From assembly GCA_947468275.1 (NCBI GenBank), contig CANIKO010000002.1, positions 105,363 through 169,362 on the forward strand: a stretch of 64,000 nt of DNA. The letters run 5' to 3'. How positions within the stretch are numbered: position 1 is the first letter of the stretch; each line of letters begins with the position of its first letter. A model generated the notes under the pieces. It had not been told where the DNA came from, made no database searches, and saw only the letters and a list, made by a program, of their open reading frames with translations. Position numbers and translations under genes: made by a program. Of this stretch, positions 28,881 through 64,000 are shown one piece after another. Source of the DNA: Bacteroidota bacterium (lineage in GTDB: Bacteria; Bacteroidota; Bacteroidia; NS11-12g; UBA9320).

Positions 28881-28897
28881 TAAATCTTAGTAAATCA

Positions 28898-30292: not shown

Positions 30293-30296
30293 GATG

Positions 30297-31940: not shown

Positions 31941-31999
31941 AATCGTTTTAAAAAATACCTTTGCAATTTCGTAAATCATTCGCAAAATATCATAACAAA

Positions 32000-45373: not shown

Positions 45374-45649
45374 ATGAACAGCAATAACAAAAAATTATCA
45401 TTGGACCTGTTAGGGCAAATACACAAAGTAGATGCACCGCCATTTTTATTTACCCGCATTAAACAAAGGATTGAGAATACTTGCACCTCAAGGTTTTCAT
45501 TAAAGTTAACCTGGTCAATTGGTCTTTCATTTATTTTAGTTTTGGCATTAAATTTTATGGTGATAAACAAACGTATACATCAAATTAGAAGTGATAATAC
45601 TTTGGTTAATACATTCAATTTAATGCCTGATAATTCATTATATAAATGA
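45374..45649 (+). CDS. Small single-pass membrane protein (candidate anti-sigma factor)
   Basis: 91 aa, one TM (WSIGLSFILVLALNFMVI); position directly after the ECF sigma gene. Confidence 0.35.
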   Translation: MNSNNKKLSLDLLGQIHKVDAPPFLFTRIKQRIENTCTSRFSLKLTWSIGLSFILVLALNFMVINKRIHQIRSDNTLVNTFNLMPDNSLYK

Positions 45650-47873: not shown

Positions 47874-49619
47874 ATGCATAAAACAAAGCACCCGATTTTT
47901 CTTCTGTTTTTTTCTAGTCTTCTTATTTTATTATCAAGCAGTCAAAGCAAGGCACAATACAACACCCTATGGATACCCGACACGCTTTCGGGGACCAATT
48001 TTAACCTGAATATCAAAGATACCTTCGCGCAAATTGTGAGCAAGGGAAACCAAACTATTACCGGAGGTATAAACGGTAAATTCTGGGGTCCGACCTTGTT
48101 CATTAAAAAAGGAGATGTGGTGCATATGAATGTTAAAAATAATCTGAATGATTCCACAACACTTCACTGGCATGGTATGCACCTGCCTGCAGTAATGGAT
48201 GGAGGTCCGCACCAGATCATTCCACCCGGCACTCTTTGGCAACCTTACTGGAAAGTGACGAACAACGCTGCAACCTATTGGTACCATCCCCATTTACACG
48301 AAATGACCATGGATCAGATCACCAAGGGATTAGGAGGATTGATTATTGTGAGAGACAGCATAGAATCTGCTTTGGCCCTGCCAAGAAAGTACGGTGTGGA
48401 CGATATTCCATTGGTATTAACGGATCGTGACTTTAACACTTCCAATCAATTTGTGGCGGTGCCTTATGGCGACAGTATGATGGTAAACGGAACGCTTCGT
48501 CCTGAGTTCTCTATTCCCGCACAGGTGGTGAGATTCAGAATTCTGAATGCCGCTATTGAACGTTCCTATAATCTTGGTTTCAGCGATAACAGGGCCTTTC
48601 TTATCATAACTTCCGACGGTGGACTATTAAATGCTCCGGTTTCTGTGACTAGATATTTATTGCATGCAGGCGAACGCATTGAAATTCTGGTCAATTGCGT
48701 TTCACAATCGGGCACTTCACTGGATTTAAAAGCCTACAATTCCACCTTGGGCAATTTTGTTGCCGGAGGCGAAGCCTTTGTCAATGGCCCCTTTGCCAAT
48801 GCATTAGGCAAAAAAGATTTTAATATTCTGCATTTAAAAATAGGTGCGATAACCGGTTCGCCAATTACAAACATACCAAGCACCCTGACCAATAATAAAA
48901 CCCTTAATGCGGCTGATGCAGTTGTTACAAGAAAAGTGACCATCAGTGACAGCGCAGGTGTTAAAGTCCCTACGATTCTCGGTCCTAATGCATTTATAAT
49001 TAACCATAAACTATTTAAGTTGGATAGAAACGAATATAATGTCCCATTGAACAATACCGAAATTTGGGAAATTACAAGTACATCCGTTTTCGGGCATCCT
49101 TTTCACATTCACGATGTGGAGTTTAATATTTTAACTGTGAACGGTGTAGCTCCGGCAGCAGCCCAAGCAGGATGGAAAGACGTGGTTTTTGTTCCTGGGA
49201 AAACAGGAACAACCCCTTCCGTTGTGAAATTCATCGCAAAATTTGATGACTATGCGGATGCCTCTCACCCGTTTATGTTCCATTGTCATATTTCATTGCA
49301 TGAAGACGAAGGTATGATGGGTCAGTTTTTAGTTACTAATTCCTCCACAGGAGTAAAAGCGCTTCAAAAATCAGAACATGCATTTATTGTTTACCCAAAT
49401 CCGGCGAACAATAAATTATATTTCCAGTTTAATAATCAAGAAATGAAAGCATATTATGTCAGGATTATTAATGAATTAGGTAAAACTATTATAATGCTCC
49501 CAAGTCCTGAGTTGGAAAAAGGAATTGATGTCAGCAGCATTGCGGCAGGTATTTATTTGATTCAGTTAACCGAATTTGGAACCAAAATATTAATAACACA
49601 AAAGTTTATTAAAGAATGA
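47874..49619 (+). CDS. Multicopper oxidase with T9SS C-terminal sorting domain
   Basis: HWHGMHLP, WYHPHLHEMT, HPFHIHDVEF, HCHISLHEDEGMMGQF give the four Cu-binding His motifs; CTD tail IVYPNPANNKLYFQF...GIYLIQL. Confidence 0.8.
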   Translation: MHKTKHPIFLLFFSSLLILLSSSQSKAQYNTLWIPDTLSGTNFNLNIKDTFAQIVSKGNQTITGGINGKFWGPTLFIKKGDVVHMNVKNNLNDSTTLHWHGMHLPAVMDGGPHQIIPPGTLWQPYWKVTNNAATYWYHPHLHEMTMDQITKGLGGLIIVRDSIESALALPRKYGVDDIPLVLTDRDFNTSNQFVAVPYGDSMMVNGTLRPEFSIPAQVVRFRILNAAIERSYNLGFSDNRAFLIITSDGGLLNAPVSVTRYLLHAGERIEILVNCVSQSGTSLDLKAYNSTLGNFVAGGEAFVNGPFANALGKKDFNILHLKIGAITGSPITNIPSTLTNNKTLNAADAVVTRKVTISDSAGVKVPTILGPNAFIINHKLFKLDRNEYNVPLNNTEIWEITSTSVFGHPFHIHDVEFNILTVNGVAPAAAQAGWKDVVFVPGKTGTTPSVVKFIAKFDDYADASHPFMFHCHISLHEDEGMMGQFLVTNSSTGVKALQKSEHAFIVYPNPANNKLYFQFNNQEMKAYYVRIINELGKTIIMLPSPELEKGIDVSSIAAGIYLIQLTEFGTKILITQKFIKE

Positions 49620-51199
49620 GAAAATTCCTAATAGGTTTTGCTTCAGTAATATGTTCCTTAAATTCCTATTCGCAGAGAAATATAGTCCTTATTATCGCTG
49701 ATGATTTAGGTACAGATTATTGTGGTTTTTATGAAGACCACCAAGACACTGTCGACATACCTAATATTAGGGCTTTGCTCAGAAAGGGTGTGCGCTTCAG
49801 CAATGCAATGTCCAATCCGGTTTGTTCTGCCACCCGTGCCGGCATTTTAACAGGGCGATATAGTTTCAGGACTGGAGTTGGTGGAATTGTTGGAGGAGCC
49901 GGCGGTTCCAATCAGTTGGATACTTCCGAAATTACAATACCGCGATTATTAAAAAAGTTTAATCCAATTATTGCAAAGGCTGATATTGGGAAATGGCATC
50001 TTCATCAGGCAATGCCAATTTCCAACCTTTTAAATCCCAATAGATTGGGATACGACCATTACGAAGGTCCTTTTATTGGTCAGTTGCCAAGCTATACCAA
50101 CTGGACAAAATATACTAATGGGGTGGCAAGCACAATAACAACCTATGCCACCACAGAAAATGTGAACAATGCAGTTACCTGGATTAAAATGCAAAATTCA
50201 AAACAATTTTTTCTTTGGTTGGCTTTTAATGCGCCTCATGCCCCTTATCATTTGCCACCTGCAGGTTTACATACCTACACTAATTTGAGTGGTACACCAT
50301 TAGATATTTCTAAAAATCCAAAATCCTATTTTAAAGCCATGCTTCAGGCGCTTGACCATGAGATTGGTCGTTTTTATGATTCATTAAAAAAAATGAATCG
50401 CTTTGACAGCACCGATTTTATTTTTATCGGTGATAATGGAAATACTACCCAAACTGCGCAAATTGCAAATACTGACAAAGCCAAAGGCACAGTTTACCAA
50501 TATGGAGTGCATGTTCCTTTTATTATTTCTGGGCCTTCAGTAGTTAATGGAGGCAGAAAAAGTGATGCTCTAGTTAATACTGCTGATATTTTCGCAACCG
50601 TACTTGATTTATTTGGAGACAAGTCATGGCCGACGCTAATACCATCAAACAAGCCGGTGGACAGCAAAAGTATTTTTCCCATTTTAAAAAACACGAGCAC
50701 AGAAATACGTCCTTGGCAATTTTGTGAAAATTTTAAATTAACACCGGATTCAACAGATGGAAAAGCCATGCGAAACAAGGAATTTAAACTCATCAAATTG
50801 GATTATGGTAAAGAAGAATTCTATAACTTAAATACTGACCCCGATGAATTAAATGATTTGTTAAAAGGAAATTTATCTTCAATAGAACAGACCAATTTCA
50901 ATTATTTGTGCAGTGAAATGACAAAATTGATTGGCAAGGGATCCTTCTGTAACAGTTCATCCGACATAAAAAATATTGTAGATCAGAAATCAGATATTTA
51001 TCCTAATCCTTTCCATGCCTATATTCACAGTGAATCCTTTACGGATCAGGACATTTATGAACTTACCGATTGTATGGGACAAATCAGATTCACCGGAAAA
51101 AACATAGAACTTCAAAATTTCTCAAACCTTCCAACAGGTGTTTATTTCCTTAAAATTTCAAACAATAAAAATCAAACCATAAAATTATTAAAAGAATAA
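49616..51199 (+). CDS. Sulfatase-family (alkaline phosphatase superfamily) enzyme with T9SS CTD; variant CSATR active-site motif
   Basis: IIADDLGTDYCGF...SNPVCSATRAGILTGRY...GKWHL...; C-terminal DIYPNPFHAYIHS...GVYFLKISN. Confidence 0.75.
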   Translation: MRKFLIGFASVICSLNSYSQRNIVLIIADDLGTDYCGFYEDHQDTVDIPNIRALLRKGVRFSNAMSNPVCSATRAGILTGRYSFRTGVGGIVGGAGGSNQLDTSEITIPRLLKKFNPIIAKADIGKWHLHQAMPISNLLNPNRLGYDHYEGPFIGQLPSYTNWTKYTNGVASTITTYATTENVNNAVTWIKMQNSKQFFLWLAFNAPHAPYHLPPAGLHTYTNLSGTPLDISKNPKSYFKAMLQALDHEIGRFYDSLKKMNRFDSTDFIFIGDNGNTTQTAQIANTDKAKGTVYQYGVHVPFIISGPSVVNGGRKSDALVNTADIFATVLDLFGDKSWPTLIPSNKPVDSKSIFPILKNTSTEIRPWQFCENFKLTPDSTDGKAMRNKEFKLIKLDYGKEEFYNLNTDPDELNDLLKGNLSSIEQTNFNYLCSEMTKLIGKGSFCNSSSDIKNIVDQKSDIYPNPFHAYIHSESFTDQDIYELTDCMGQIRFTGKNIELQNFSNLPTGVYFLKISNNKNQTIKLLKE

Positions 51200-51200
51200 C

Positions 51201-52562
51201 ATGTACAATTTAAAGAGAAAATTAATGGTGCTCAGCTTGCTTTTTACAAGCATTGCCTCAAATGCACAAACCAATCCTGCCATTCTGAATTGGCTTCAAA
51301 ACACTACAAACATAACAGGTAGACATTATGTAAAAGGCAATTCCACCGCCATTACCGATGCAACTTTAGCCAATGTTCAAAATGTTAAATACTCTGCAGA
51401 TTGGGTTTACATAAGCACCCAGGGGATTCCTGCCTATGTTACGGGACCATTTTTGGACAATAACCCATCATTGGCAACCGCCCAAAATGCAATTTTTAAA
51501 ATCTCCTTAAAACCTGTTAAAAACCCGGGAGCATTTACTGCCACCACAGGAGGAAATATTGGTATTTTTATCAATGGTGTAGCCTTGTTTGATTACCGCG
51601 ACGGAGTTTCCTGGCAAAACAGTTCAAGTTCTTTAAAAGGCGGTCCTTCAGGCGGAATTGGGGATGGTGTTTGGAACCGCGATGCCGTGGTTGGTGAAAA
51701 GTTAGGTTTTGATTGTTCCAAAGGACACCCAGCCATGGGCAATTATCATCACCACCAAAATCCAAGTGCCTTTAAGCTGGACCTTACTGTGATATCCACT
51801 GTGTGTAATTTATACGATGCTGACGGATTGTATGTCATCGATAGTACAAAACATTCTCCATTATTGGGTTTTGCTTATGATGGATTTCCGATTTATGGAG
51901 CCTATGCCTACAAAAATGCAGATGGTACCGGTGGAATTACCCGCATGAAATCGAGTTATACTTTGAGAAATATTACCAAACGCATTACGTACTATACCGG
52001 AACCAATGTAACTGCAGGTCCTGATGTTGATGCCACTTATAAATTGGGTTATTTCAGAGAGGATTACCAATACAATACCACCTCTGCTGCCACTCCCGAT
52101 TATTTGGATGAACATAACGGACGTTTTTGCAAAACCCCGGAATATCCGGATGGTATTTATTGTTATTACGCCACCGTAGATAAAAATTGGAACTCTGCTT
52201 ACCCATATATAGTTGGTCCTACTTTTTATGGAACAAAAACTGCCGCTAAAGTAACAAGCATTGCCGAAACGGTTCAAACCTTCGCTCCACCGGTGGCTAT
52301 TCAGAAACTTGAGAACAATCAAATCTCTGTTTTTCCAAATCCGAGCAGCGATTTAATTGCCGTGCAACTGAACGGTTTATCGAGAGAAAATACAACCGTT
52401 TCCCTGTATGATTTAAACGGGCGAATGATTCAAAATACTGTCATAAATCAGGGAAGTACCATTGTTTATTTCGATACCAAAACTATATATGCTGGAGAAT
52501 ATATAGTTAAAATTTCTAACGATAAGGGTTCAATTACCAAAAAGGTTGAAGTTTATAAATAA
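51201..52562 (+). CDS. YHYH-family secreted protein with T9SS CTD (paralog of 58704..60326)
   Basis: NGVALFDY, NYHHHQNP, shared motifs with the downstream YHYH protein; CTD ISVFPNPSSDLIAVQL... Confidence 0.5.
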   Translation: MYNLKRKLMVLSLLFTSIASNAQTNPAILNWLQNTTNITGRHYVKGNSTAITDATLANVQNVKYSADWVYISTQGIPAYVTGPFLDNNPSLATAQNAIFKISLKPVKNPGAFTATTGGNIGIFINGVALFDYRDGVSWQNSSSSLKGGPSGGIGDGVWNRDAVVGEKLGFDCSKGHPAMGNYHHHQNPSAFKLDLTVISTVCNLYDADGLYVIDSTKHSPLLGFAYDGFPIYGAYAYKNADGTGGITRMKSSYTLRNITKRITYYTGTNVTAGPDVDATYKLGYFREDYQYNTTSAATPDYLDEHNGRFCKTPEYPDGIYCYYATVDKNWNSAYPYIVGPTFYGTKTAAKVTSIAETVQTFAPPVAIQKLENNQISVFPNPSSDLIAVQLNGLSRENTTVSLYDLNGRMIQNTVINQGSTIVYFDTKTIYAGEYIVKISNDKGSITKKVEVYK

Positions 52563-52587
52563 TTGAATGTAATATTGATAATCAACG

Positions 52588-53070
52588 ATGAATAAAACGG
52601 CTATTAGGATAATGGTTTTTGCTATAAGCCTTTTATTTAACAATGTTGCTTTTTCTCAAAATATTTCTACAATTAGATTTGAGACTCTCCAGCAGCGGAT
52701 TACCTCAAATCCTGATACCGTTTATGTCGTTAATTTCTTTGCATCGTGGTGTGCACCCTGCATTCAAGAAATTCCTGATTTTTTGAAGTATGCTGAAGAT
52801 AATAAGAATGAGAAAGTAAGGGTGATTTTTGTGAGTCTGGATTTTAAAAAAAACATGTATGAGAGTTTGTTACCTCTGATTCAGAAATTAAATATCAATC
52901 AAACGGTTTATTTATTGGATGAACCGGACGCCAATCAATGGATAGACAAAATTGACAATACCTGGAGTGGTGTAATTCCGGCCACCCTGATACTTCATAA
53001 ATCTTCTGATTATAGAAAGTTTATACCGGCCCCCCTTACTTATAGTTTATTAAAGAAGTTTACAAAATGA
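52588..53070 (+). CDS. TlpA/ResA-like thiol-disulfide oxidoreductase
   Basis: FFASWCAPCIQEIP (WCxPC) in a thioredoxin fold; signal peptide. Confidence 0.7.
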   Translation: MNKTAIRIMVFAISLLFNNVAFSQNISTIRFETLQQRITSNPDTVYVVNFFASWCAPCIQEIPDFLKYAEDNKNEKVRVIFVSLDFKKNMYESLLPLIQKLNINQTVYLLDEPDANQWIDKIDNTWSGVIPATLILHKSSDYRKFIPAPLTYSLLKKFTK

Positions 53071-53678
53071 AACGCACCATTTTTAAAATTCAAAGCGGAC
53101 TGATTATGGTCATCTTTGGTTTCACCCTTATTAATTTTACCATCTTGGAACATGATAATGTCAAAGATTTTAAATTAAAAAATGTGGATGGAAGCTATGT
53201 TTCATTAAGCGATTATCCCGATGCCAAAGGGTTCATTATTGTTTTTACCTGCAATCACTGCCCTTTCGCTAAGCTATATCCTGCCAGATTAAACGAGTTA
53301 AATTTAAAATATAAAAAACTGGGGATACCGCTTCTGGCAATCAGCTCTACAGACACCATCGCCTATGAAGAAGATACCTATGTCAAAATGGTTGAAAAAT
53401 CAAAGAACGAATCTTTTAACTTCCCTTATTTATATGATGGGCAGCAAACGGTTGCTAAAAATTTCAAGGCACAAAAAACACCCCATGCCTATGTGATCTG
53501 GAAAGAAAAAGGGCAATGGACAATCAAATACCAGGGGGCTATTGACGATAATGGTGCTGAACCAGAAAAAGTTGAGAACAATTATATCGCACTAGCTATC
53601 GATCAACTCCTAAATAATAAGGAAGTTAAAAGAAAAGAAACTAAATCCATTGGCTGCCAGATACGCTTTAGAAAATAA
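53067..53678 (+). CDS. Thioredoxin-fold (AhpC/TSA/redoxin-like) protein
   Basis: FTCNHCPFAKLY (CxxC); translationally coupled to the preceding gene. Confidence 0.55.
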   Translation: MKRTIFKIQSGLIMVIFGFTLINFTILEHDNVKDFKLKNVDGSYVSLSDYPDAKGFIIVFTCNHCPFAKLYPARLNELNLKYKKLGIPLLAISSTDTIAYEEDTYVKMVEKSKNESFNFPYLYDGQQTVAKNFKAQKTPHAYVIWKEKGQWTIKYQGAIDDNGAEPEKVENNYIALAIDQLLNNKEVKRKETKSIGCQIRFRK

Positions 53679-53749
53679 AAATCGCTTAATTCAGGAATAA
53701 TTAAGAAATTTGTTTTGTCTATGCTTTAAAACAATTCTATTGATATGCA

Positions 53750-53755
53750 GTTAAC
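53750..53755 (+). promoter_or_regulatory. GTTAAC element 39 nt upstream of the ECF sigma-2 start (paired with 44779..44784)
   Basis: Same motif and spacing as upstream of sigma-1. Confidence 0.3.
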
Positions 53756-53788
53756 GGTTTATTCTTATACATTTGGGTTCACTTTCTG

Positions 53789-54361
53789 ATGGAAGAAAAA
53801 GAGTTGTTAAAACTTCTGATTTTAGGTGATAAACATGCATTCAACCAATTGTTAAAACTATATGGAAAAAAGGTATTAAACACTTGTTACCGTTTTCTAT
53901 TAAATGAACACGATGCTGAGGATATTTCACAGGAAGTTTTTATTGAAGTTTTTCAATCCATCCAAGCATTCAGGGGGAATTCAAAACTTTCTACCTGGAT
54001 ATACCGGATTGCCATTGCCAAATGTCTAGATGAAATAAAAAGGAAAAACAGGAAAAAGCGCATCACCTCCATCGGGAAAACATTTCATCTGGACGAAGTG
54101 GTTCACTGGATTGCAGGAGGCTCTTCTCCTGATAAATCTATCAAAGAAAAGGAAAAATTACAGGAAGTAATGCAGGCTTTAAATGCCCTTCCGGATAATC
54201 AAAGAATAGCCTTTACACTGAGTAAGATAGAAGGTTATACAAATTTAGAAATTTCTGAAATTATGAATACCACAACAGTTGCCGTGGAATCTCTGATTTA
54301 CCGCGCAAAAAAGAAAGTCAGCAAAGAATTGGAATTAATTTTAAAAAATACCCATGAATAG
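53789..54361 (+). CDS. ECF-type sigma-70 factor (module 2), paralog of 44817..45341
   Basis: ...DAEDISQEVFIEVFQSIQAF...KLSTWIYRIAIAKCLDEIK...LPDNQRIAFTLSKIEGYTNLEISEIMNTTTVAVESL. Confidence 0.8.
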   Translation: MEEKELLKLLILGDKHAFNQLLKLYGKKVLNTCYRFLLNEHDAEDISQEVFIEVFQSIQAFRGNSKLSTWIYRIAIAKCLDEIKRKNRKKRITSIGKTFHLDEVVHWIAGGSSPDKSIKEKEKLQEVMQALNALPDNQRIAFTLSKIEGYTNLEISEIMNTTTVAVESLIYRAKKKVSKELELILKNTHE

Positions 54362-54701
54362 TGCCAGAAATAAAAATAAGAATCGTCAAATGAAAAGAAC
54401 AAGCATGAATGAATCAGAAATTTTAAAGATTGTTTCTCAAAAACTTGAGGAGTTTGAAGGCTTTAAAGAAATTCAACCTTCTTCTGCCTGGAATAGCTCG
54501 ATGATACAAAAATTGAGTACTTCAAAACAAAAGCCCAAAACTACTTATAAAACAGTCTCCATTGCAGCAGCTTTTGTATTTTTAGTTTTGCTCAACTTTG
54601 GATATCTAAGCAAATTAATGAATCAAAAAGAAGAAAGGGATTTGTCGAGGAATAATGAATTAAGTATTATTTCAAAAGAGTTACTCATTATCAAGCACTA
54701 A
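54354..54701 (+). CDS. Small single-pass membrane protein (candidate anti-sigma factor)
   Basis: 115 aa, one TM (VSIAAAFVFLVLLNFGYL); overlaps the sigma gene stop. Confidence 0.35.
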   Translation: MNSARNKNKNRQMKRTSMNESEILKIVSQKLEEFEGFKEIQPSSAWNSSMIQKLSTSKQKPKTTYKTVSIAAAFVFLVLLNFGYLSKLMNQKEERDLSRNNELSIISKELLIIKH

Positions 54702-54704
54702 ATC

Positions 54705-55202
54705 ATGGACATATTCACCCAAAAAAAAGTATTAACCCGGGTCGTGATTTTTTTGGCTGCGTTAAACATTATTTCTATTGGTTTTTTATGGTATAGTTCC
54801 GGTGGTAAGAAACATGAACCACCCTTGTTTCGTGGAGGTGATTACCGCGATGTTTCGGGTATTCTGAAAAAGGAGTTGGGTTTAACAAAAAGCCAGGAAC
54901 AACAAATCAAGGATTTGCGTGCTGTCTATTTTGAAAAAGAATCGGAATTGGAAAGAACCATTCGAAGTGAAAGAGACTCCATGAATGAAGAGATGTTTAA
55001 CAAGAACACAAATGAGCCATTAATAAAATCTTTAGCCCGCAGGGTTTCTGACAATGAATATAAAATGGAGCTGATGCGATATGAACAGGCAGAAAAATTT
55101 AAATCCATTTGCACGCCTCAACAACTTGAAAAATTTGAAAATCTCGTGAAAGAAATAAGGGATTATTTTAGGCCGGATAATCAACCAAAAAGAAAAAAAT
55201 AA
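54705..55202 (+). CDS. Spy/CpxP-family (LTXXQ-motif) periplasmic protein
   Basis: N-terminal TM; LGLTKSQEQQIKDL (LTXXQ); helical, Lys/Glu-rich. Confidence 0.5.
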   Translation: MDIFTQKKVLTRVVIFLAALNIISIGFLWYSSGGKKHEPPLFRGGDYRDVSGILKKELGLTKSQEQQIKDLRAVYFEKESELERTIRSERDSMNEEMFNKNTNEPLIKSLARRVSDNEYKMELMRYEQAEKFKSICTPQQLEKFENLVKEIRDYFRPDNQPKRKK

Positions 55203-55282
55203 TATTATTAAACAGTGCCAGAAACTAAATTTTTTATCGTCTTTAACATTAAATCATACATTATCAGAATTTTTTAAAAAAT

Positions 55283-56950
55283 ATGATGCCTAAAAACAAA
55301 GCAGCCAAACCATTAATTCTTAGACTGTTCGCAATTTCACTTTTTGTCTTCACCCATGCGTTTCTTTTTGCGCAAACCAAATCCATTATTTTGGGCAGGC
55401 CTACAGATACATCTATTACGGCAAGTATTCTGTTTGATCAAAATGTAAATTATTATCTTGAATATGGCACCCAATCCGGAACTTTTTTAAAAACCACGGC
55501 AGTCTTTGCAAATAAAGCAAACACGCCCGATGAAATAGTCCTGCAAAATCTTTCACCAAATACAAAATATTTTTATAGGATTCAGTATCATCTTTTACCT
55601 ATAAGTTTTTATACTCCAACCCCTGAATACTCTTTCAATACCCAGCGGGCTAAAGGTTCTTCATTTACCTTCACCATTGAGGCTGATGAGCATTTATATG
55701 ACAAGAAAGGGGTAAAAAGCATTTATCAGTTATGTTTAAATAACCAGGCCAAGGACAAACCTGATTTTATGTTGTCTTTGGGGGATATTTTTGGAGATGA
55801 CCACTATCCATTCACCATTACTTCCGCTCAGTTGGATGCCTTGCATAAAGATTACCGGCCATTTTTGGGAAGCATCTGCCACTCTGTTCCGTTTTATGTT
55901 TGTCTCGGAAACCATGAAGGAGAAAATGATTATTACCTTGCGAAAACACCCCCTAACAATTTAGCGGTATGGGGCACGCAGTGGAGAAAGTTCTATTACC
56001 CCAATCCCTACCCAAACGGCTTTTACAGCGGAAATACAGATAATGAACCCTTCGGTATAGGCAATCCTGAAAATTACTATGCCTGGACCTGGGGCGATGC
56101 GTTGTTTGTTGTTCTGGATGTTTACCGGGACGAATGTGACACTTCCGATAAACCCTTAAATTGGGATTGGTCTTTGGGTAAACCACAATATGACTGGCTT
56201 AAAGCAACGCTGGAAGGCAGCACTTCTAAATACAAATTTGTTTTTGCCCATCATATTCGCGGACAGGGCAGAGGCGGTATTACCAATGCCAAATTATATG
56301 AATGGGGAGGTTACGACGGGAAAAACGGAACAACATATAATTTTCCAAACAAACGTCCGGGCTGGGCCAAGCCGATTCACCAGTTGTTTAAAGACAATGG
56401 TGTAAACATATTTTTCCAGGGCCATGACCATTTATTTGCTCATGAAACGATGGACGGTATTACCTACCAGGAAGTCCCCATGCCCAGTGACTCAACTTAC
56501 ATGATTGGCAAATTGGCCAATGCCAATGCTTATGTGTCGGACACTTTAGAGGGGACAGGCCATATCAGGGTGACCGTAAACCCATCTTGTATTAAGGTGG
56601 ATTTTGTTCGGGCCTATTTACCCAAGGATACACTGTCGGGCGTGCATAAAAATGGAGAAGTTGCTTTTTCATACACCATTGGAAACTGCGGTTCATCCGG
56701 AGTTATGCAGCAAACCATAGATGATTTCGTAAAAGTATTTCCAAATCCGGCCAGCAATAAAATTAGCGTTCGGTTTAAAGAAGACCCCAAAAATTATACA
56801 TTAAAACTCACCAATATCCTTGGTGAAACAGTGTTGGAAACCCGAACAAATGAACTTGATGTCAGTGGTTTACAAACCGGGGTTTACTACCTCAATATTG
56901 AGACAGGCAACAATCATTTTGTTAAAAAAGTAATCGTAAATCAAAACTAA
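55283..56950 (+). CDS. Calcineurin-like metallophosphoesterase (purple-acid-phosphatase-like) with T9SS CTD
   Basis: GDIFGDD, CLGNHEG, GHDH metal-binding motifs; CTD KVFPNPASNKISVRF...GVYYLNIE. Confidence 0.7.
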   Translation: MMPKNKAAKPLILRLFAISLFVFTHAFLFAQTKSIILGRPTDTSITASILFDQNVNYYLEYGTQSGTFLKTTAVFANKANTPDEIVLQNLSPNTKYFYRIQYHLLPISFYTPTPEYSFNTQRAKGSSFTFTIEADEHLYDKKGVKSIYQLCLNNQAKDKPDFMLSLGDIFGDDHYPFTITSAQLDALHKDYRPFLGSICHSVPFYVCLGNHEGENDYYLAKTPPNNLAVWGTQWRKFYYPNPYPNGFYSGNTDNEPFGIGNPENYYAWTWGDALFVVLDVYRDECDTSDKPLNWDWSLGKPQYDWLKATLEGSTSKYKFVFAHHIRGQGRGGITNAKLYEWGGYDGKNGTTYNFPNKRPGWAKPIHQLFKDNGVNIFFQGHDHLFAHETMDGITYQEVPMPSDSTYMIGKLANANAYVSDTLEGTGHIRVTVNPSCIKVDFVRAYLPKDTLSGVHKNGEVAFSYTIGNCGSSGVMQQTIDDFVKVFPNPASNKISVRFKEDPKNYTLKLTNILGETVLETRTNELDVSGLQTGVYYLNIETGNNHFVKKVIVNQN

Positions 56951-56959
56951 ATCTCATCG

Positions 56960-58675
56960 ATGAAACAAACGATCATATTTGTCATATTTCTTTTTATCCT
57001 GATGAATGCATCCAATGCCCAAACCCTGAGGCACAAAGAGATTTTAGGAAGACCCACGGATAATAGCATCACAATTCAGGCATTTTTTGATAATCCGGCA
57101 GAAGTATGTGTCCAATATGGCACAACATCCGGAAACTATCCCAATCAAACAGCCTGGCAAACCTTTGCAGCAGGAGAACCTTCTGAAATTTTAATAAGCG
57201 GCCTGCAGCAGGATATGAAATATTATTACAGAATGTGTTACCGTCAGCCGGGAACCATCCCATTTGCCTCAAGACCTGAATACACGTTTCATACGGCCCG
57301 TCCTCAAGGTAAGAGTTTTTCATTTGTGGTGCAGGCTGATCCTCATTTGGATGAGCAAAGTGATACGGCTGTTTATCGCCGTTGCCTGAGAAATCAATTA
57401 GAAGATGCTCCCGATTTTATGATAGATCTGGGTGATTTTTTAATGACTGATAAACTGAGAACCCCTGCCAAAGTAGTTCCCAGAGATACCGTGACTTACC
57501 GCTGTCACTTGTTGCGTTCCTATTACGAAACATCCTGTCATTCGGTGCCTTTGTTCATCGCCTTGGGAAATCACGAGGGAGAATCGGGTTGGAATCTGAA
57601 CGGAACACCCAACAATATTGCAGTTTGGGGCACCAATGATCGCAAAAAATATTTTACCAATCCCATTACCAACAAATTTTATTCAGGGGATACCACCAAT
57701 TATGCTTTTGTCGGTCAACGTGAAGCCTATTATTCCTGGCAATGGGGTGATGCTTTGTTTATCGTTATTGACCCATATTGGTACACCAAACCCAAACCTG
57801 ATTCTTTAAACGGATGGCGATGGACCTTAGGTAAAACACAATACGATTGGTTAAGAAAGACCCTTGAGGGAAGCAACGCGAAGTTCAAATTTGTATTCTC
57901 TCATCAAATTGTTGGAGGTGATCCTGACGGACGCGGTGGGGTGGAATATGCCAACCGCTATGAGTGGGGAGGTGATAACCTGGATGGAACCAAAGGATTT
58001 TCAAGCAATCGCCCGGGTTGGTACAAACCCATCAAAGATTTATTGGAAGAAAACCGGGTGACCATATTCTTTCACGGGCATGATCATTTTTTTGGCAAAC
58101 AGGAAAAAAACTGCCTCGTTTATCAGGAAACCCCTCAACCCAGTCATCCTAATTTTACCAGTGTGACCTATGCAAAAGATTATGGATATTTTGAGGGGCA
58201 AATACTGCCAAATTCGGGTTATATAAGAGTTACCGTCGGTCCTGATGGCGTAAAAACAGAATATGTCAGGGTTTATTTACCTGCCAATGAGACGGCCAAC
58301 CGACACAACAAGGATGTTTCAGCGACTTATTTTATAGGGGCTAAAAATTGTTATGATTCTATAACAGGCGGTATTCCCATGATCTGGAATAGCAGTTATG
58401 CCGATGAGCTCATTTACCCAAATCCATTCAATCAGGAAACAAAAATTGAATTTTCGCTCAACAATCCGGAACGCATTAACCTTTATGTAATGGATAATCA
58501 GGGCAGGAAAGTGAAACAACTTATTGCCGGCAACGAAGTTCAAAATGGGAAATTTCAAATCATTTGGGACGGAAAAGATTCATCCGGAAATTTATTGCCC
58601 AACGGCACTTATTATTATGCCTTAAAAGGCCAGAACAGTGAAGAAAAAACCGGGAAAATTATTCTGCAGCGCTAA
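56960..58675 (+). CDS. Calcineurin-like metallophosphoesterase paralog with T9SS CTD
   Basis: LGDFLMTD, ALGNHEG, HGHDH; CTD LIYPNPFNQETKIEF...GTYYYALKG. Confidence 0.7.
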   Translation: MKQTIIFVIFLFILMNASNAQTLRHKEILGRPTDNSITIQAFFDNPAEVCVQYGTTSGNYPNQTAWQTFAAGEPSEILISGLQQDMKYYYRMCYRQPGTIPFASRPEYTFHTARPQGKSFSFVVQADPHLDEQSDTAVYRRCLRNQLEDAPDFMIDLGDFLMTDKLRTPAKVVPRDTVTYRCHLLRSYYETSCHSVPLFIALGNHEGESGWNLNGTPNNIAVWGTNDRKKYFTNPITNKFYSGDTTNYAFVGQREAYYSWQWGDALFIVIDPYWYTKPKPDSLNGWRWTLGKTQYDWLRKTLEGSNAKFKFVFSHQIVGGDPDGRGGVEYANRYEWGGDNLDGTKGFSSNRPGWYKPIKDLLEENRVTIFFHGHDHFFGKQEKNCLVYQETPQPSHPNFTSVTYAKDYGYFEGQILPNSGYIRVTVGPDGVKTEYVRVYLPANETANRHNKDVSATYFIGAKNCYDSITGGIPMIWNSSYADELIYPNPFNQETKIEFSLNNPERINLYVMDNQGRKVKQLIAGNEVQNGKFQIIWDGKDSSGNLLPNGTYYYALKGQNSEEKTGKIILQR

Positions 58676-58703
58676 ATAATTATTGATAAAATTTGAAATG
58701 CCC

Positions 58704-60326
58704 ATGAAAAAAATAAATAGATACAGTTACCTACTCATGATTTGCCTGATGGGCAATTTATTGTTTGCCCATGACAGCCATTATGACCATTCCAGTCAAA
58801 AACACTGGACGCTTGCGAGGGAGTCAAAGACTTTCGAAGGTTCTTTTTTTATGTATAAAAATGGGAATGTTTACATTGAAACCGATCATGACAAAATCAT
58901 TAACTATCCTTTAACAGCTTTCACAAAAGAAGATCAGGCGTTTGTTTTGGCTAAATATGCCCGGATTGAAAAATTAAACCATCAAATAGCAGAACGGGCA
59001 AAACCAAAGGTTTCTGTTCTAAGCATATTTGATATTAAGTTCTTCGTATTTTTAGCTCTCCTGATATTATCCGGATTTTATATTTTTAAGATTGCACAGA
59101 AACAAAAGATTCAATATTTAGCTCCGGTTTTTTTGATTGCGATTGTACTGTCACTTTACAGTTTCACCACCAAAGTTATTGGTGTTTTAGGAACAACCAC
59201 TGACCCTGCATTTGTTAATTCAGCATTTGCACCCTTCAAACCCAATGTCAATACCCGTTGGGACAATACCTATTTTTATGTTGAGTCCCTTGGCATTCCC
59301 GAACATTTAATGATGTCAGGAATAACAGGATGGCAGCAACAGTTCCCCATTCCTCAGTGTTATATTGGTTCCAATGCCTGGAGTATTCCCTTAAATCCCG
59401 TGAAAGCCGCCACGCCGGTCCCCGTAAATGCCCAGCATTTTTTGCGCGGTGCGGTTGCAATTGCTGCCAATGGGGTAGCCATCTTCAATCCTTACACCAA
59501 TACCGGTGTAGATGCTCTGTTGGATGGTCAGCTTGATAATTACGGAGGCCACTGTGGCCGTGCAGATGATTACCATTATCACATTGCGCCTTTATTTTTA
59601 GATGATAAAACTGCTGATATTTTGCCCATTGCCTTTGCTCTGGATGGATACGCCATTTACGGCAGTCTTGAGCCGGATGGTTCAGCCATGAAAACACTCG
59701 ACGCCAATCACGGGCACGATGGCAGTAACGGGGTTTACCATTATCACGGAACTCCGACTGCCCCTTATATGATTGGTAACATGGTGGGTCAGGTTACCGA
59801 AGATGCTACCCTTCAAATAATTCCGCAGGCTGCAGCCAAAGGGGTTCGCCCTGCCGGAACACCCTTGAAAGGTGCCGTAATTACAAGTTGTATCCCAAAC
59901 AAAGCCGGAAATGGCTACAAACTGACCTACACGCTTTCAGGTGTAACAGATTCAGTGGTTTACAGCTGGACACCTGCCGGATTGTTTACCTTTAATTATT
60001 ATGTTTCAGGGGTAAAAACAACGACCAATTATACGGGTACTGCCATTTGTAAGGTTCCGACGGCGTCAATCAATTCGATATTTCAGGAAAATGAAATTTC
60101 AGTATATCCGAATCCGGTTAAGGAAGTTTTAAATTTAAAGTTGTCCAAACAGATTAAGGAAAATGATGTACAGGAAATTTCTGTATATAACCTAAATGGC
60201 GAATTGGTTTATCATGCCGATAAATATATCTCTGGCATTGATGTCAGGAATTTTTCGAGGGGCATTTATCTGGTTAAAATTCAGGTATCTAACCGGCAGT
60301 TTATTAAAAAAATAAGCATTCAATAA
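58704..60326 (+). CDS. YHYH-family secreted protein with T9SS CTD
   Basis: Start at MKKINRYSYLLMICLMG...; DYHYHIAPLFL and VYHYHGTPTAPY; CTD ISVYPNPVKEVLNLKL...GIYLVKIQV. Confidence 0.5.
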   Translation: MKKINRYSYLLMICLMGNLLFAHDSHYDHSSQKHWTLARESKTFEGSFFMYKNGNVYIETDHDKIINYPLTAFTKEDQAFVLAKYARIEKLNHQIAERAKPKVSVLSIFDIKFFVFLALLILSGFYIFKIAQKQKIQYLAPVFLIAIVLSLYSFTTKVIGVLGTTTDPAFVNSAFAPFKPNVNTRWDNTYFYVESLGIPEHLMMSGITGWQQQFPIPQCYIGSNAWSIPLNPVKAATPVPVNAQHFLRGAVAIAANGVAIFNPYTNTGVDALLDGQLDNYGGHCGRADDYHYHIAPLFLDDKTADILPIAFALDGYAIYGSLEPDGSAMKTLDANHGHDGSNGVYHYHGTPTAPYMIGNMVGQVTEDATLQIIPQAAAKGVRPAGTPLKGAVITSCIPNKAGNGYKLTYTLSGVTDSVVYSWTPAGLFTFNYYVSGVKTTTNYTGTAICKVPTASINSIFQENEISVYPNPVKEVLNLKLSKQIKENDVQEISVYNLNGELVYHADKYISGIDVRNFSRGIYLVKIQVSNRQFIKKISIQ

Positions 60327-60335
60327 TCAAACAAA

Positions 60336-61568
60336 ATGCAAAAAATCGTTTACCTGATAGCGCTGTTTATTTCAATGAATTCTTTTGCTCAGTACAAAGG
60401 AACATGCTCGGTTACCCAGGGACCTGCAAGTACAACAGTTACAAATCTGTATTCATGCAGCGGAGGCCGGGTTTCAGGTGTTGGGACCATAAAAGCAACA
60501 GACAATTTAAACTGGACTGTTCCGGCACTTGTTAATTTTACAAACACTGCTTTCCCGTTTTCATCCGACCTGAACAACGCGTGTAATGGAAACAATTATG
60601 CCAATGTTGCAGCCGCTCTGGCAGCCTTAAACGGGACCGATATTGTTACAGTTGACGCCGACGGAGAACTGATAACAGCTTATATTTTCGCCGATAATTA
60701 TTTTGAAATGTACATCAACGGGACCGCAGTTGGAAAAGACAAGGTTCCTTTCACCCAGTTCAACTCGAGTATTATTCGTTTTAAAGTAAAAAGACCATTT
60801 ACCATCGCCATGCTTCTGGTGGATTGGGAAGAAAATCTGGGACTCGGTTCGGAATTAAACGGCGGTTTTGCTTACCATCCAGGCGACGGGGGTATGGTAG
60901 CTGTTTTTAAAGATGCCTCCAATAAAATAATTGCAACCACTGGCAATGAATGGAAAGCCCAGACTTTTTACACGTCGCCCATAACCGATTTGACCTGTCC
61001 ATCCGAATCCGGTACTTTGCGATTGTCTACCAATTGCAGCACCCAAAATTCGAACGATGGCAGCAAATATTACGGACTTCACTGGAGTCGGCCTGCAAAC
61101 TGGATGAATGCCGCTTTTGACGATTCATCCTGGCCATCGGCTTCCACCTTTACCAATGCTACCATCGGGGTTGACAACAAACCGGCTTATACCAATTTCA
61201 CAGCCATCTTTGATGAAGCTTCTGATGATGCCGAATTTATATGGAGCTCCAATGTCATTTTAGATAATGAGGTGATTGTGAGGCACACAGTGGCAGGTAT
61301 CGCTTCTATTTTTAACAATAACTTACCGGATTTGAAAATTCGGATTTATCCTAACCCGGCAAAAAATAGTTTCCAAATTCAAGGAATAGAAGGTTTGTTA
61401 AAGGATAACAACTTCAAAATCAGAATTTTTAATGCATTAGGTGAAAGAGTTTATGAAGCGGATGATTATAATGAAAAAATAGAACTTCCTTTGATACCCT
61501 CCGGAGTTTACTTTATTAAAATCATGAGCGGCAGTGATCAGGTAATACAGAAATTAATTATCGAATAA
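60336..61568 (+). CDS. Secreted hypothetical protein with T9SS CTD
   Basis: Signal peptide ...SFAQ; CTD IRIYPNPAKNSFQIQG...GVYFIKIMSG. Confidence 0.45.
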   Translation: MQKIVYLIALFISMNSFAQYKGTCSVTQGPASTTVTNLYSCSGGRVSGVGTIKATDNLNWTVPALVNFTNTAFPFSSDLNNACNGNNYANVAAALAALNGTDIVTVDADGELITAYIFADNYFEMYINGTAVGKDKVPFTQFNSSIIRFKVKRPFTIAMLLVDWEENLGLGSELNGGFAYHPGDGGMVAVFKDASNKIIATTGNEWKAQTFYTSPITDLTCPSESGTLRLSTNCSTQNSNDGSKYYGLHWSRPANWMNAAFDDSSWPSASTFTNATIGVDNKPAYTNFTAIFDEASDDAEFIWSSNVILDNEVIVRHTVAGIASIFNNNLPDLKIRIYPNPAKNSFQIQGIEGLLKDNNFKIRIFNALGERVYEADDYNEKIELPLIPSGVYFIKIMSGSDQVIQKLIIE

Positions 61569-61581
61569 TCGGAATGAAATC

Positions 61582-62802
61582 ATGAAGAACACAATTTTAA
61601 CGCTTATTTTCTTAATTTCGGTTTATCTATCACATAGTCAAAGTGCTACCAAAACCATGAAGCGTCTTCCCGATACCGGTCAAAACATAAGTTATACAAC
61701 AACTTTTGGCGAAGACAATGACTACACCATCAATGCACCTTTTTTTAAAAACAATGGCAACGGAACCGTAACGGACACCATAACAGGATTGATGTGGCAA
61801 AAGACCGACGGTGGGGAAATGACAATTGAAAACGCTGTTATTTATTGCGATTCACTCACTTTGGGTGGTTATACAAACTGGCGATTGCCCGATGCACATG
61901 AGTCATTCAGTATATTAAATCACCAAAATAATGGCCCGGCCCTCAATACAACAGTTTTTACCAAAACCCTGGCTGAATACTGGTGGACGGGTGATAAGCA
62001 ATACAATGATGCCACCAGAATTTGGGTAACCAATGCTGGTGGTGGTATAGGAAATCATCCCAAATCTGAAACGGTGAGTGCAGGCGGAACAAAAAAAATC
62101 CATGTCAGGGCGGTGAGGGATATTACCACTCCGACTGTCATTCAAAACAGATTAACCAAAAATGGCGATGGCACTGTTACCGATAATCTTACAGGATTAA
62201 TTTGGGAGCAGATACCCAATCCAAATTCAAATACCTGGGAACAGGCATTAATTTATGCTGAGAATCTTTCACTTGCCGGAAAAACCGACTGGCGATTGCC
62301 TAACATCAAAGAATTACAATCTCTGAGTGATTACAAATTAGGCAGTCCTTCTATTGATCAATTGATTTTTACCGGCATTCTAACAAATAAGTACTGGTCA
62401 TCTACTTCCTTGCCTAATCTAACATCAAAGGCTTGGTATTTATCAACCCAATTTGGAATCACCACCTATGATGATAAAACAAACACCAACTATTTTATAT
62501 GTGTAAGAGGGGGCAATCAGGTAAGCAGCGGTATTGGTAGAACTCCTGATAAAGTTAAATCTGCATATATTTTTCCGAATCCTGCAACTACGGACTTTTA
62601 CCTTACATCAGAGGTTGTTAATGTTTGTCGGTTGCAGTTTAGACTATTTAATAATTTAGGACAAACAGTTTGTATTCAGGAACCTGAATTAACCGATAAT
62701 TATTTTCATTTTAATACAGAAACGCTTACCAATGGATTGTATTTTTTGACGGTAAAAGATAACAAAGCATCATTCACCTATAAATTATCAATTCAAAAAT
62801 GA
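61582..62802 (+). CDS. DUF1566 (Lcl C-terminal-like) repeat protein with T9SS CTD
   Basis: Two YTNWRLP / TDWRLPNIKELQSL repeats typical of DUF1566; CTD YIFPNPATTDFYLTS...GLYFLTVKD. Confidence 0.5.
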   Translation: MKNTILTLIFLISVYLSHSQSATKTMKRLPDTGQNISYTTTFGEDNDYTINAPFFKNNGNGTVTDTITGLMWQKTDGGEMTIENAVIYCDSLTLGGYTNWRLPDAHESFSILNHQNNGPALNTTVFTKTLAEYWWTGDKQYNDATRIWVTNAGGGIGNHPKSETVSAGGTKKIHVRAVRDITTPTVIQNRLTKNGDGTVTDNLTGLIWEQIPNPNSNTWEQALIYAENLSLAGKTDWRLPNIKELQSLSDYKLGSPSIDQLIFTGILTNKYWSSTSLPNLTSKAWYLSTQFGITTYDDKTNTNYFICVRGGNQVSSGIGRTPDKVKSAYIFPNPATTDFYLTSEVVNVCRLQFRLFNNLGQTVCIQEPELTDNYFHFNTETLTNGLYFLTVKDNKASFTYKLSIQK

Positions 62803-64000
62803 TTTTTAAAAAAATCCTGATTTTAGTTCTTTTTTCTGCCACTTCCTATTTGACCCTGGCTCAAAGAAATGTCATTCTGATCATAGCCGATGATTTAGGC
62901 ACTGATTATTGCGGATTTTATGAGAACCATCTAGATACTATAGCCATGCCGAATATCAGAAGGTTATTAAACCGTGGCGTTAGGTTTAATAAAGCCTGGT
63001 CTAATCCGCTGTGCTCCCCAACCCGTGCAGGAATACTCACAGGGCGTTACAGCTTTAGAACAGGTGTGGGAAATGCTGTAGGAGGTGCAACATCGGCCGT
63101 TTTGGATACTGCTGAAATAACCATTCCCAGGATGTTGAATAAGTTTAAACCCGGAGGCTACGACAAAGCCAATATCGGTAAATGGCACCTTCAATTGCCG
63201 ACGCCTATATCCAATTACATTTTTCCAAACAAAATGGGTTATGACCATTATGAAGGAAACTTTACCGGTGTTGTCAGCAGTTATTATAATTGGACAAAAG
63301 TCACAAACGGAGTGGCATCCACCAATACCAACTATGCTACCACCGAAACAGCAGACAATGCAGTTAGCTGGATAAAAAAACAAAACAAACCTTTCTTTTT
63401 GTGGCTTGCCTTTAATGCCCCTCATGTCCCTTTTCATTTGCCACCTAAATGGCTACATTCGGATACAACACTGAGCGGACTGGATGCCGATATAGCCGCA
63501 AATCCAAAACCTTATTTCAAAGCTGCTCTTGAAGCCTTGGACCACGAAATTGGAAGAGTGTTTGATTCATTGAAACGATTTAACAAATGGGATAGTACGG
63601 ATATTATCTTTATCGGTGATAATGGAGATGATGCACAAGTTGCCCAAAATACCGGAGGTGCTAAAGGAAGTGTTTATCAGGAAGGGGTAAGTGTGCCCTT
63701 TATTATTTCAGGACCTTCGGTGTCTGCGCCGGGAAGAACCAGCGATGCCCTTGTCAATACCCATGATTTATTTGCAACCATTTTGGATTTGTTTGGATAC
63801 ACAAATTGGCAAACCCAAATACCGGGCAATAAACCAGTAGACAGTAAAAGCATTTTACCCATACTAAAAAATAAGGCATCTGAAATAAGACCCTGGGTTT
63901 TTACAGAAGTTTTTAAAATTCCTACCGTAGCCGGTGATGGTAAGGCCATGCGAAACAAAGATTACAAATTAATCGACTTTGATAACGGAACTCAAAAGTT
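62799..64000 (+). CDS. Sulfatase-family enzyme, paralog of 49616..51199, canonical CSPTR motif (3' end runs off the window)
   Basis: VILIIADDLGTDYCGF...SNPLCSPTRAGILTGRY...GKWHL...; ATG overlaps the previous stop. Confidence 0.8.
   Translation, partial: MIFKKILILVLFSATSYLTLAQRNVILIIADDLGTDYCGFYENHLDTIAMPNIRRLLNRGVRFNKAWSNPLCSPTRAGILTGRYSFRTGVGNAVGGATSAVLDTAEITIPRMLNKFKPGGYDKANIGKWHLQLPTPISNYIFPNKMGYDHYEGNFTGVVSSYYNWTKVTNGVASTNTNYATTETADNAVSWIKKQNKPFFLWLAFNAPHVPFHLPPKWLHSDTTLSGLDADIAANPKPYFKAALEALDHEIGRVFDSLKRFNKWDSTDIIFIGDNGDDAQVAQNTGGAKGSVYQEGVSVPFIISGPSVSAPGRTSDALVNTHDLFATILDLFGYTNWQTQIPGNKPVDSKSILPILKNKASEIRPWVFTEVFKIPTVAGDGKAMRNKDYKLIDFDNGTQK

Follow-up and report, generated by a model that had tools for sequence, protein, structure and literature searches.

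Two adjacent sigma-factor-led operons of predicted type IX secretion cargo, with a possible tie to copper or metal handling, in a Bacteroidota contig

At the 3' end of a 64-kb stretch of DNA from a Bacteroidota bacterium (GCA_947468275.1, contig CANIKO010000002.1), called the window throughout, lies a block of closely packed genes comprising two adjacent operons, each headed by an extracytoplasmic function (ECF) sigma factor and each encoding predicted cargo for export by type IX secretion (the T9SS). The source, a metagenome contig of about 280 kb, was found via exact protein look-up, and gene families were assigned by Pfam and NCBIfam profile searches against curated cut-offs. From 44817 to the window end, all sizeable open reading frames (ORFs) lie on the plus strand. 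The block starts at 44817, 5' of the coordinate 47874 at which the first-pass annotation had begun it, and on the source contig it ends about 380 nucleotides (nt) past the window, near window position 64379 (L001 12798), where the genes 3' of sulfatase 2 flip strand and have housekeeping functions.

Spacing within the operons ranges from an 8-nt overlap to a 40-nt gap, with 110 nt before sigma factor 2 and 80 nt before metallophosphoesterase 1 (MPE1). Each operon opens with a triad of sigma factor, candidate anti-sigma factor and membrane-anchored Spy-like protein. Operon 1 runs in the order sigma 1 triad, MbnP, MbnH, (multicopper oxidase, sulfatase 1), YHYH1, thioredoxin-like protein and redoxin, and operon 2 in the order sigma 2 triad, (MPE1, MPE2), YHYH2, 410-residue protein, DUF1566 protein, (sulfatase 2), where parentheses enclose genes that vary among relatives as described below. 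The features are as follows, with lengths in amino acids (aa), the multicopper oxidase abbreviated as MCO and the T9SS C-terminal sorting domain as CTD.

44817..45341, plus strand: ECF sigma factor 1, head of operon 1 (Sigma70_r2, r4_2, Sigma70_ECF; TIGR02937 99 bits against a cut-off of 42.9)
45374..45646, plus strand: candidate anti-sigma 1, 90 aa, with a single hydrophobic segment at residues 41-64; role suggested by position
45646..46104, plus strand: membrane-anchored Spy/CpxP-like protein 1, assigned by similarity to Spy-like protein 2; N-terminal hydrophobic anchor
46101..46799, plus strand: MbnP-family copper-binding protein (PF20243 148.9 bits against a cut-off of 27)
46796..47833, plus strand: MbnH-family di-haem MauG-like peroxidase (CCP_MauG 174 bits; two CSSCH haem motifs)
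47874..49619, plus strand: CueO-like MCO with CTD at about 49389-49613 (Cu-oxidase_3, Cu-oxidase, Cu-oxidase_2, PF18962; TIGR04183 40 bits)
49616..51199, plus strand: sulfatase 1 with CTD at about 50996-51193 (PF00884 136.7 bits; TIGR04183 37.9 bits; motif CSATR)
51201..52562, plus strand: YHYH1 with CTD at about 52329-52547 (PF14240 190.6 bits; TIGR04183 47.7 bits)
52588..53070, plus strand: exported thioredoxin-like protein with WCAPC motif (Thioredoxin_8, AhpC-TSA, Thioredoxin; weak TlpA/ResA-type matches)
53067..53678, plus strand: redoxin/ResA-like thiol-disulfide oxidoreductase, also labelled Prx, with CNHC motif (AhpC-TSA 62 bits, Redoxin 45.6 bits)
53789..54361, plus strand: ECF sigma factor 2, head of operon 2 (Sigma70_r2, r4_2, Sigma70_ECF; TIGR02937 102.8 bits)
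54354..54701, plus strand: candidate anti-sigma 2, 115 aa, single-pass, with one transmembrane segment at residues 67-85; putative role
54705..55202, plus strand: membrane-anchored Spy/CpxP/CnrX-superfamily protein 2 (PF13801 34.2 bits against a cut-off of 29.2, LTXXQ; N-terminal anchor)
55217..55242, plus strand: candidate ECF-dependent promoter GCCAG-N16-CGTCT, 40 nt upstream of MPE1
55283..56950, plus strand: MPE1 with CTD at about 56735-56941 (PF00149; PF18962 53 bits; TIGR04183 44.2 bits)
56960..58675, plus strand: metallophosphoesterase 2 (MPE2) with CTD at about 58412-58669 (PF00149; TIGR04183 30.1 bits; PF18962 24.9 against 27)
58704..60326, plus strand: YHYH2 with CTD at about 60102-60323 (PF14240 58.3 bits; PF18962 54.4 bits)
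60336..61568, plus strand: 410-aa protein ('U410') with an unnamed conserved domain of about 320 aa and a CTD at about 61344-61562, the CTD being the sole Pfam match
61582..62802, plus strand: DUF1566/Lcl_C protein with two repeats and CTD at about 62569-62796 (PF07603 180 bits over two stretches; TIGR04183 38.6 bits)
62799..64000, plus strand: sulfatase 2, cut at the window end, with a full length of 526 aa and a CTD (PF00884 168.5 bits; motif CSPTR)

The cargo genes have a G+C content of 0.36-0.42, compared with 0.30-0.36 for the block regulators and about 0.30-0.35 for much of the remaining window. Horizontal transfer was considered from this difference and dropped, as the shift is modest and protein composition could account for it.

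Eight named proteins of the block had been described as carrying T9SS CTDs, and this holds for all of them, each matching TIGR04183 at 30.1-47.7 bits against a cut-off of 23. PF18962 likewise matches all eight, MPE2 alone lying below the cut-off, and the block CTDs align to solved CTD structures. The second sulfatase had been called CTD-less; the window cuts the protein at residue 400, and the full-length product read from the source contig matches TIGR04183 at 31.0 bits and PF18962 at 33.1 bits. The CTD-less call is therefore a window-edge artefact, and the block holds nine cargo genes. A CTD profile made from the eight tails, run with filters off over all window ORFs, retrieves those eight plus two others only, an esterase at 4446-6149 (minus strand) and a protein at 9415/9457-11343 (plus strand), both also confirmed by contig Pfam annotation and TIGR04183, so that the four further CTD proteins reported elsewhere in the window reduce to two. 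Of the 19 block genes, 9 encode a CTD, compared with 2 of about 42 elsewhere (Fisher p = 2e-4), which bears out the description of a dense cargo cluster; T9SS cargo genes are usually scattered over the genome. The N-termini of all nine cargo proteins, as read from the sequence, are basic, then hydrophobic, and end in A-Q, S-Q or A-H. No T9SS machinery components were recognised in the window or in the sampled contig parts, the host being an uncultured Bacteroidota metagenome-assembled genome (MAG). The nine products are predicted to be secreted via the T9SS.

The two regulatory triads share a layout that is kept in other genomes. Orthologues of anti-sigma 1 occupy the position directly after sigma 1 (+1) in many loci, with Spy-like protein 1 kept at +2, and anti-sigma 2 is likewise kept at +1 after sigma 2; neither anti-sigma candidate matches a family in Pfam or NCBIfam. 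Spy-like protein 1 has no Pfam match, and its tie to the superfamily is the BLASTP match to Spy-like protein 2 alone. Spy-like protein 2 has Spy as its closest solved structure (E = 0.003) and also matches CpxP and Spy models. In CnrX, metal is bound by His42, His46, Glu63, His119 and Met123 (PMC6851896). Nickel/cobalt sensing of the CnrX type was considered for Spy-like protein 2 and rejected, because the protein lacks these metal ligands; its best solved relative is Spy. The block had been described as co-localised with metal-stress regulators, and regulators bearing a metal-stress family name do adjoin the cargo genes, to which they stand closer than co-location implies, since they head the operons.

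Aligning the regions upstream of sigma 2 orthologues revealed the motif TGCCAGAAA-N-TCGTCTAA. In its strict form, GCCAG-N16-CGTCT, it has a single match in the window, both strands included, where 0.02 would be expected, and this match, at 55217-55242, lies in the 80-nt gap between Spy-like protein 2 and MPE1. The form [GA]C[CA]AGA-N15-CGTCT, searched in 81 related loci, gave 21 sense sites and 1 antisense site against a shuffle mean of 0.68 per strand. The sites in relatives stand just upstream of sigma, anti-sigma, MPE1, MCO or YHYH2 genes, and they include Flavobacterium loci without a sigma gene nearby. Such a motif is what one would expect of an ECF-dependent promoter whose -10 element is of the CGTC type, and it is treated as a candidate. 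Because an ECF-type motif precedes cargo genes, the cargo is predicted to be a direct regulon of the sigma factor.

Operon 1 places an MbnP/MbnH pair directly behind its regulators. MbnP binds copper at a site that depends on a kynurenine, which MbnH generates from the Trp in a WxW motif (PMC11951088). The window MbnP carries this motif as WTW and scores 43 bits with TIGR04052 against a cut-off of 140, while the window MbnH, whose gene overlaps that of MbnP by 4 nt, scores 214 bits with TIGR04039 against 363; since both lie below the equivalog cut-offs, membership is at the family level only. The MCO has three cupredoxin domains and the four copper-ligand motifs HWH, HPH, HPFHIH and HCHISLH, and its best NCBIfam match is CueO (NF008205, 375.4 bits against a cut-off of 525).

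The surroundings of YHYH1 were followed in a metagenome scan centred on this protein, in which 80 of 570 relatives were analysed. MbnH lies directly upstream of YHYH1 in 42/63 loci; a range of 4 kb takes in MbnH in 31/40 loci and MbnP in 27/40, and an ECF sigma factor is found within 4.5 kb in 21/40. Three YHYH1 orthologues picked solely for their long contigs were all preceded by MbnP and MbnH (3/3), one of them (1/3) also having a triad of sigma factor, 91-aa protein and 151-aa protein upstream. The canonical operon 1 unit is thus sigma factor, anti-sigma, Spy-like protein, MbnP, MbnH and YHYH1. In the window, MCO and sulfatase 1 are inserted between MbnH and YHYH1, and insertions at the same place occur elsewhere, with an MCO in loci L097, L112 and L114 and a sulfatase in L109 and L110. 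Both operon types adjoin in other genomes as well (L006, L040, L056, L082, L084, L095, L097).

Operon 2 was mapped by placing the window proteins, minus their CTDs, on the best 80 loci, and relatives of the 410-aa protein were searched in one genome per species. Such relatives are present in 385 species genomes, among them Flavobacterium, Saprospiraceae, Haliscomenobacter, many lake MAGs, Kapaibacterium and Ignavibacteriae. The 410-aa gene has YHYH2 as its immediate upstream neighbour in 62/71 loci and DUF1566 as its immediate downstream neighbour in 56/67. Further genes are found less often: upstream, the MPE pair in 22/53 loci, an MCO in 10/53 and, ahead of YHYH2, a redoxin orthologue in 16/53; downstream, a sulfatase in 14/52 and, within 4 kb, a HupE/UreJ permease (nickel/cobalt permease family) in 23/52. 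The sigma/Spy-like triad accompanies the cassette in 13-14/49 loci, a sigma 2 orthologue being the head in 13/49. YHYH2, the 410-aa protein and DUF1566 are near-constant and therefore form the conserved core, the hydrolases being optional.

In the close relative L006, whose 410-aa protein is 86% identical, exactly sigma 2, anti-sigma 2, Spy-like 2, MPE1 and MPE2 are missing; when L006 8565-8660 is set against window positions of about 53745-58690, YHYH2 follows at once on the sequence that in the window forms the intergenic stretch ahead of sigma 2, so that the two related genomes differ by a clean indel of roughly 5 kb. In L003/L004 (2072-13839), which belong to one metagenomic lineage, a cassette of sigma factor, anti-sigma, Spy-like protein, MPE, MPE, YHYH, 410-aa protein, DUF1566 and HupE is flanked by a tyrosine integrase and by RteC plus an HTH_17 excisionase-like gene, which suggests that this cassette is carried on an integrative mobile element.

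YHYH1 and YHYH2 both exceed the PF14240 gathering score of 25, and the family alignment of the YHYH domain contains invariant His and Asp residues. The first-pass annotation had called these proteins His-rich, which their composition contradicts, histidine making up 1.5% of YHYH1 and 3.0% of YHYH2; its statement that they are functionally uncharacterised is agreed. YHYH2 consists of a putative signal peptide, an SHD1-like domain, a hydrophobic hairpin, the YHYH domain and the CTD, a layout conserved in 24/24 orthologues. Within its N-terminal 180 residues (58704-59240), the signal peptide ends in an Ala-His invariant in 24 orthologues, so placed that the mature protein would begin with this His. 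The SHD1-like domain spans about 70 aa, with PF03983 matches in some orthologues. Of the hydrophobic segments ahead of the YHYH domain, the strong one is present in 24/24 orthologues and the weaker one in about 14/24; a membrane hairpin in a T9SS cargo protein suggests either processing or a membrane-tethered form. A YHYH2 model with a predicted local distance difference test score (pLDDT) of 86 found no relative among PDB structures, and PDB profile searches with the 410-aa and YHYH2 alignments returned CTD matches only.

The 410-aa protein has more than 2000 homologues; full-length identity is 62-93% in the 120 best clusters, which are named only as CTD-containing. Its domain family is compact, comprising 456 clusters at 50% identity in a set of 1.84 billion representatives, and in some cases the domain is embedded in giant proteins. 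Structure prediction of the 410-aa protein from 20 close homologues reached a pLDDT of 48.7 and was not usable. Homologues of the domain also occur on plasmids. A conjugative plasmid of Vibrio navarrensis (L087 8908-9891) encodes one without a CTD at 48% identity, and a Loktanella salsilacus plasmid (L088 5326-9278) encodes a 215-aa homologue (32% identity, E = 7e-25) between two YHYH genes. The Loktanella homologue is annotated as 'PEBP family protein' but has no Pfam PBP match; it adjoins a true YbhB/YbcL PEBP gene. Since the pairing of YHYH and the 410-aa domain occurs without a CTD in an alphaproteobacterial plasmid, it crosses phyla and is T9SS-independent.

Both metallophosphoesterases match PF00149 (33.9 and 37.7 bits against a cut-off of 21.5) with intact catalytic motifs D-x-H (DEH in MPE1), GD-x-x-x-D, GNHE, H and GHDH. 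Sulfatase 1 has the motif CSATR, with Ala for the usual Pro, and sulfatase 2 the canonical CSPTR. Neither the window nor the sampled flanks yielded a formylglycine-generating enzyme or an anaerobic sulfatase maturase.

Outside the block, a small Gp49 (HigB-like) gene beside an HTH_3/HTH_19 gene at about 14326-15000 (minus strand) looks like a toxin-antitoxin pair. The minus-strand stretch 16397-23068 encodes a ThiF-domain protein of 769 aa that faintly matches nitroreductases, and beside it a 236-aa protein, a hybrid kinase, a 7TMR-DISM sensor kinase and a response regulator. The stretch 23792-32018 (minus strand) holds six large genes nearly without annotation, with DUF4129 (faint), DUF8413/SpoIIM and DUF5723 among the matches; one 384-aa protein there matches thioredoxin/ResA models in its C-terminal part.

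Taken together, these findings probably describe two adjacent, widely conserved, sigma-led operons of T9SS cargo tied to copper or metal handling, a reading that we favour with some reserve. The domain content, the CTDs, the gene order shared with other genomes and the placement of the promoter-like motif are observed, and high confidence attaches to the operon architecture with its predicted regulon. The signal, the regulation, the secretion and what YHYH, the 410-aa protein and DUF1566 do biochemically are predicted as follows. The Spy-like protein and the anti-sigma factor would jointly sense an envelope signal, most likely copper or another metal. Sensing would free the sigma factor, and the cargo would then be transcribed from promoters of the GCCAG-N16-CGTCT type. 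Exported through Sec across the inner membrane and through the T9SS across the outer one, the cargo would take part in copper or metal handling on the cell surface, with the hydrolases as optional add-ons.

The first-pass annotation had instead stressed segmental paralogy, which, taken to its conclusion, makes the block a recent local duplication in which module 2 is a diverged module 1. Family pairs are indeed numerous, five in all between the halves (sigma factor, Spy-like protein, sulfatase and YHYH, with the MPE pair in tandem). All-against-all BLASTP of the window proteins upholds the sulfatases (66% identity over 402 aa) and the metallophosphoesterases (41% over 523 aa) as paralogues, while the YHYH pair stands at the family level only, BLASTP aligning the CTDs alone; the two share a Pfam family with about 26% identity in the family alignment. 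Sigma 1 and sigma 2 are 40% identical, the Spy-like proteins 23% (E = 2e-5), and the anti-sigma candidates have no detectable similarity. The pairs have thus diverged to very different degrees, from 66% identity to undetectable, the order of the halves is not collinear, and even the sulfatase genes are merely 67% identical in DNA. When each window copy was compared with the ORFs of the 81 related loci, 7 sulfatases were nearer copy 1, 15 nearer copy 2 and 3 ambiguous, the metallophosphoesterases split 30 vs 29, and the YHYH proteins split 12 vs 66 between YHYH1 and YHYH2; loci with both sulfatases (L006, L016) keep them in the same relative positions as the window. Since each copy has its own orthologues in other, also distant, genomes, the pairs are ancient, and a local segmental duplication is very improbable. 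The block had further been seen as a secretome island for scavenging phosphate and sulfate from organic esters, the hydrolases being the core and the other genes passengers. Such a role agrees with the presence of two metallophosphoesterases that keep all five catalytic motifs and of two sulfatases bearing C-x-[PA]-x-R, all of them with putative signal peptides and CTDs, and with weak similarities to purple acid phosphatase, PhoD and the PehA phosphoric/sulfuric ester hydrolase. It is nevertheless improbable, because the MPE pair and the sulfatase are optional in the conserved clusters (22/53 and 14/52 loci), L006 lacks the sigma 2 triad and both MPEs, and the constant genes are other ones; the window has no Pho regulon, Pst, sulfate-transport or sulfatase-maturase genes, the regulators are ECF/Spy-like in type, and the recurring neighbours are MbnP, MbnH, MCO, redoxins and HupE.

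A stronger competitor than these two, although still unlikely, is a regulon for general envelope or secretion stress without metal specificity, in which the Spy/CpxP-like proteins would sense misfolded periplasmic or T9SS cargo and the products, among them the lectin-like DUF1566 protein, the beta-sandwich-like 410-aa protein and YHYH, would serve adhesion, glycan binding or surface maintenance. The nearness of Spy-like protein 2 to the chaperone Spy, its matches to CpxP and Spy models, and its lack of the CnrX metal ligands speak for such a regulon. Lcl_C is moreover an adhesin-type domain with weak matches to the FimD tip adhesin and Lsa25, and the Vibrio 410-aa homologue weakly matches the sugar-binding Glyco_hydro_2_N (21 bits, below cut-off). 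What a stress regulon leaves unexplained is the close linkage to MbnP/MbnH (42/63), MCO and HupE/UreJ, and the invariant His and Asp of the YHYH domain. Several observations weigh in turn against the reading of sigma-led cargo operons tied to copper or metal handling. Spy-like protein 2 has one His and no CnrX metal site, so the signal could be protein-folding stress. Sigma 1 and its orthologues (19 examined) yielded no shared upstream motif, nor was any motif found upstream of sigma 2 in the window, and scans for sigma-70 promoters and intrinsic terminators were at chance level, with no operon ends defined. MbnP, MbnH and MCO all score under NCBIfam equivalog cut-offs, the internal transmembrane-like segments of YHYH2 are hard to square with secretion, the window has no HupE gene, and the block contains neither an efflux pump nor a metallochaperone nor a TonB-dependent transporter. 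The copper or metal role itself rests on gene neighbourhood and family names, and taken separately it is a tentative proposal that falls a little short of an even call.

A more specific form of the copper or metal proposal, to which we attach only a small chance, is that YHYH and the 410-aa domain constitute an extracellular copper-handling system that partners MbnP/MbnH, is exported by the T9SS in Bacteroidota and is switched on by three-part ECF sensors. YHYH1 could then be a third MbnP/MbnH component, acting as a surface copper donor or acceptor or as a second substrate of MbnH, the tryptophan-modifying enzyme. YHYH2 could be cleaved after the hairpin, leaving a tethered N-terminal domain whose first His forms a histidine-brace copper site, with the YHYH domain secreted.

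The components of the block are of kinds already known (T9SS cargo, ECF triads, MbnP/MbnH, MCO), and their assembly into the two operon types did not turn up in the searchable literature, where nothing was found that describes the two operon types, the promoter motif, the MbnP-MbnH-YHYH triad or the YHYH-410-aa-DUF1566 core. A paper on a Flavobacterium psychrophilum genomic island that mentions an MCO was set aside as not relevant. T9SS cargo is usually catalogued gene by gene, and two conserved operons with predicted sigma control would give a regulatory handle on part of the secretome. Copper together with MbnP/MbnH provides a testable context for two large families of uncharacterised proteins, YHYH (PF14240), a common family in eukaryotic algae as well, and the unnamed domain of about 320 aa, present in at least 385 bacterial species. 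The genes are widespread in freshwater Bacteroidota, so the link, if true, would bear on copper handling at their cell surface. The predictions can be tested directly in culture, since Flavobacterium luteum NBRC 112527 (L002/L017) possesses a cassette of MPE, MPE, YHYH, 410-aa protein, DUF1566, sulfatase and HupE.

Among known systems, CnrYXH of Cupriavidus metallidurans (PMC6851896) resembles the regulators in its ECF sigma factor, single-pass anti-sigma and anchored periplasmic PF13801/LTXXQ protein, a likeness shown for triad 2. It differs in that the window sigma factor is predicted to control T9SS cargo and not a resistance-nodulation-division (RND) efflux pump, and in that the window anti-sigma candidates match no family. 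ECF281 and ECF290, which the ECF classification relates to heavy-metal stress, likewise have a sigma factor followed by an anti-sigma at +1 and a PF13801 protein at +2 (PMC7826278); the window triads have the same gene order, a likeness of layout and not a group assignment.

Methanobactin operons (PMC11951088, PMC3621798) contain the same pair as operon 1, a WxW-bearing MbnP followed by a MauG-like MbnH with an overlapping start codon. Unlike those operons, the window locus has no methanobactin biosynthesis or MbnT transporter genes, its pair is preceded by an ECF triad and followed by a YHYH protein with predicted T9SS export, and its MbnP and MbnH score under the equivalog cut-offs. The CueO/CopA-type periplasmic multicopper oxidases of copper-resistance loci share with the window MCO three cupredoxin domains and all four copper-ligand motifs. 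The window MCO, in contrast, lacks an obvious Met-rich segment and CopB/CopC/CopD or CusCFBA partners, and it has a putative Sec signal peptide and a T9SS CTD, from which a surface or extracellular location is predicted. Type A T9SS cargo of Flavobacterium johnsoniae and Porphyromonas gingivalis (translocon-bound CTDs, 8glj/8glk) resembles the block products in having a TIGR04183 CTD of about 70-85 aa, next to an N-terminal signal peptide that is putative in the block products, whereas YHYH2 here has internal transmembrane-like segments and the nine cargo genes sit together in two sigma-led operons.

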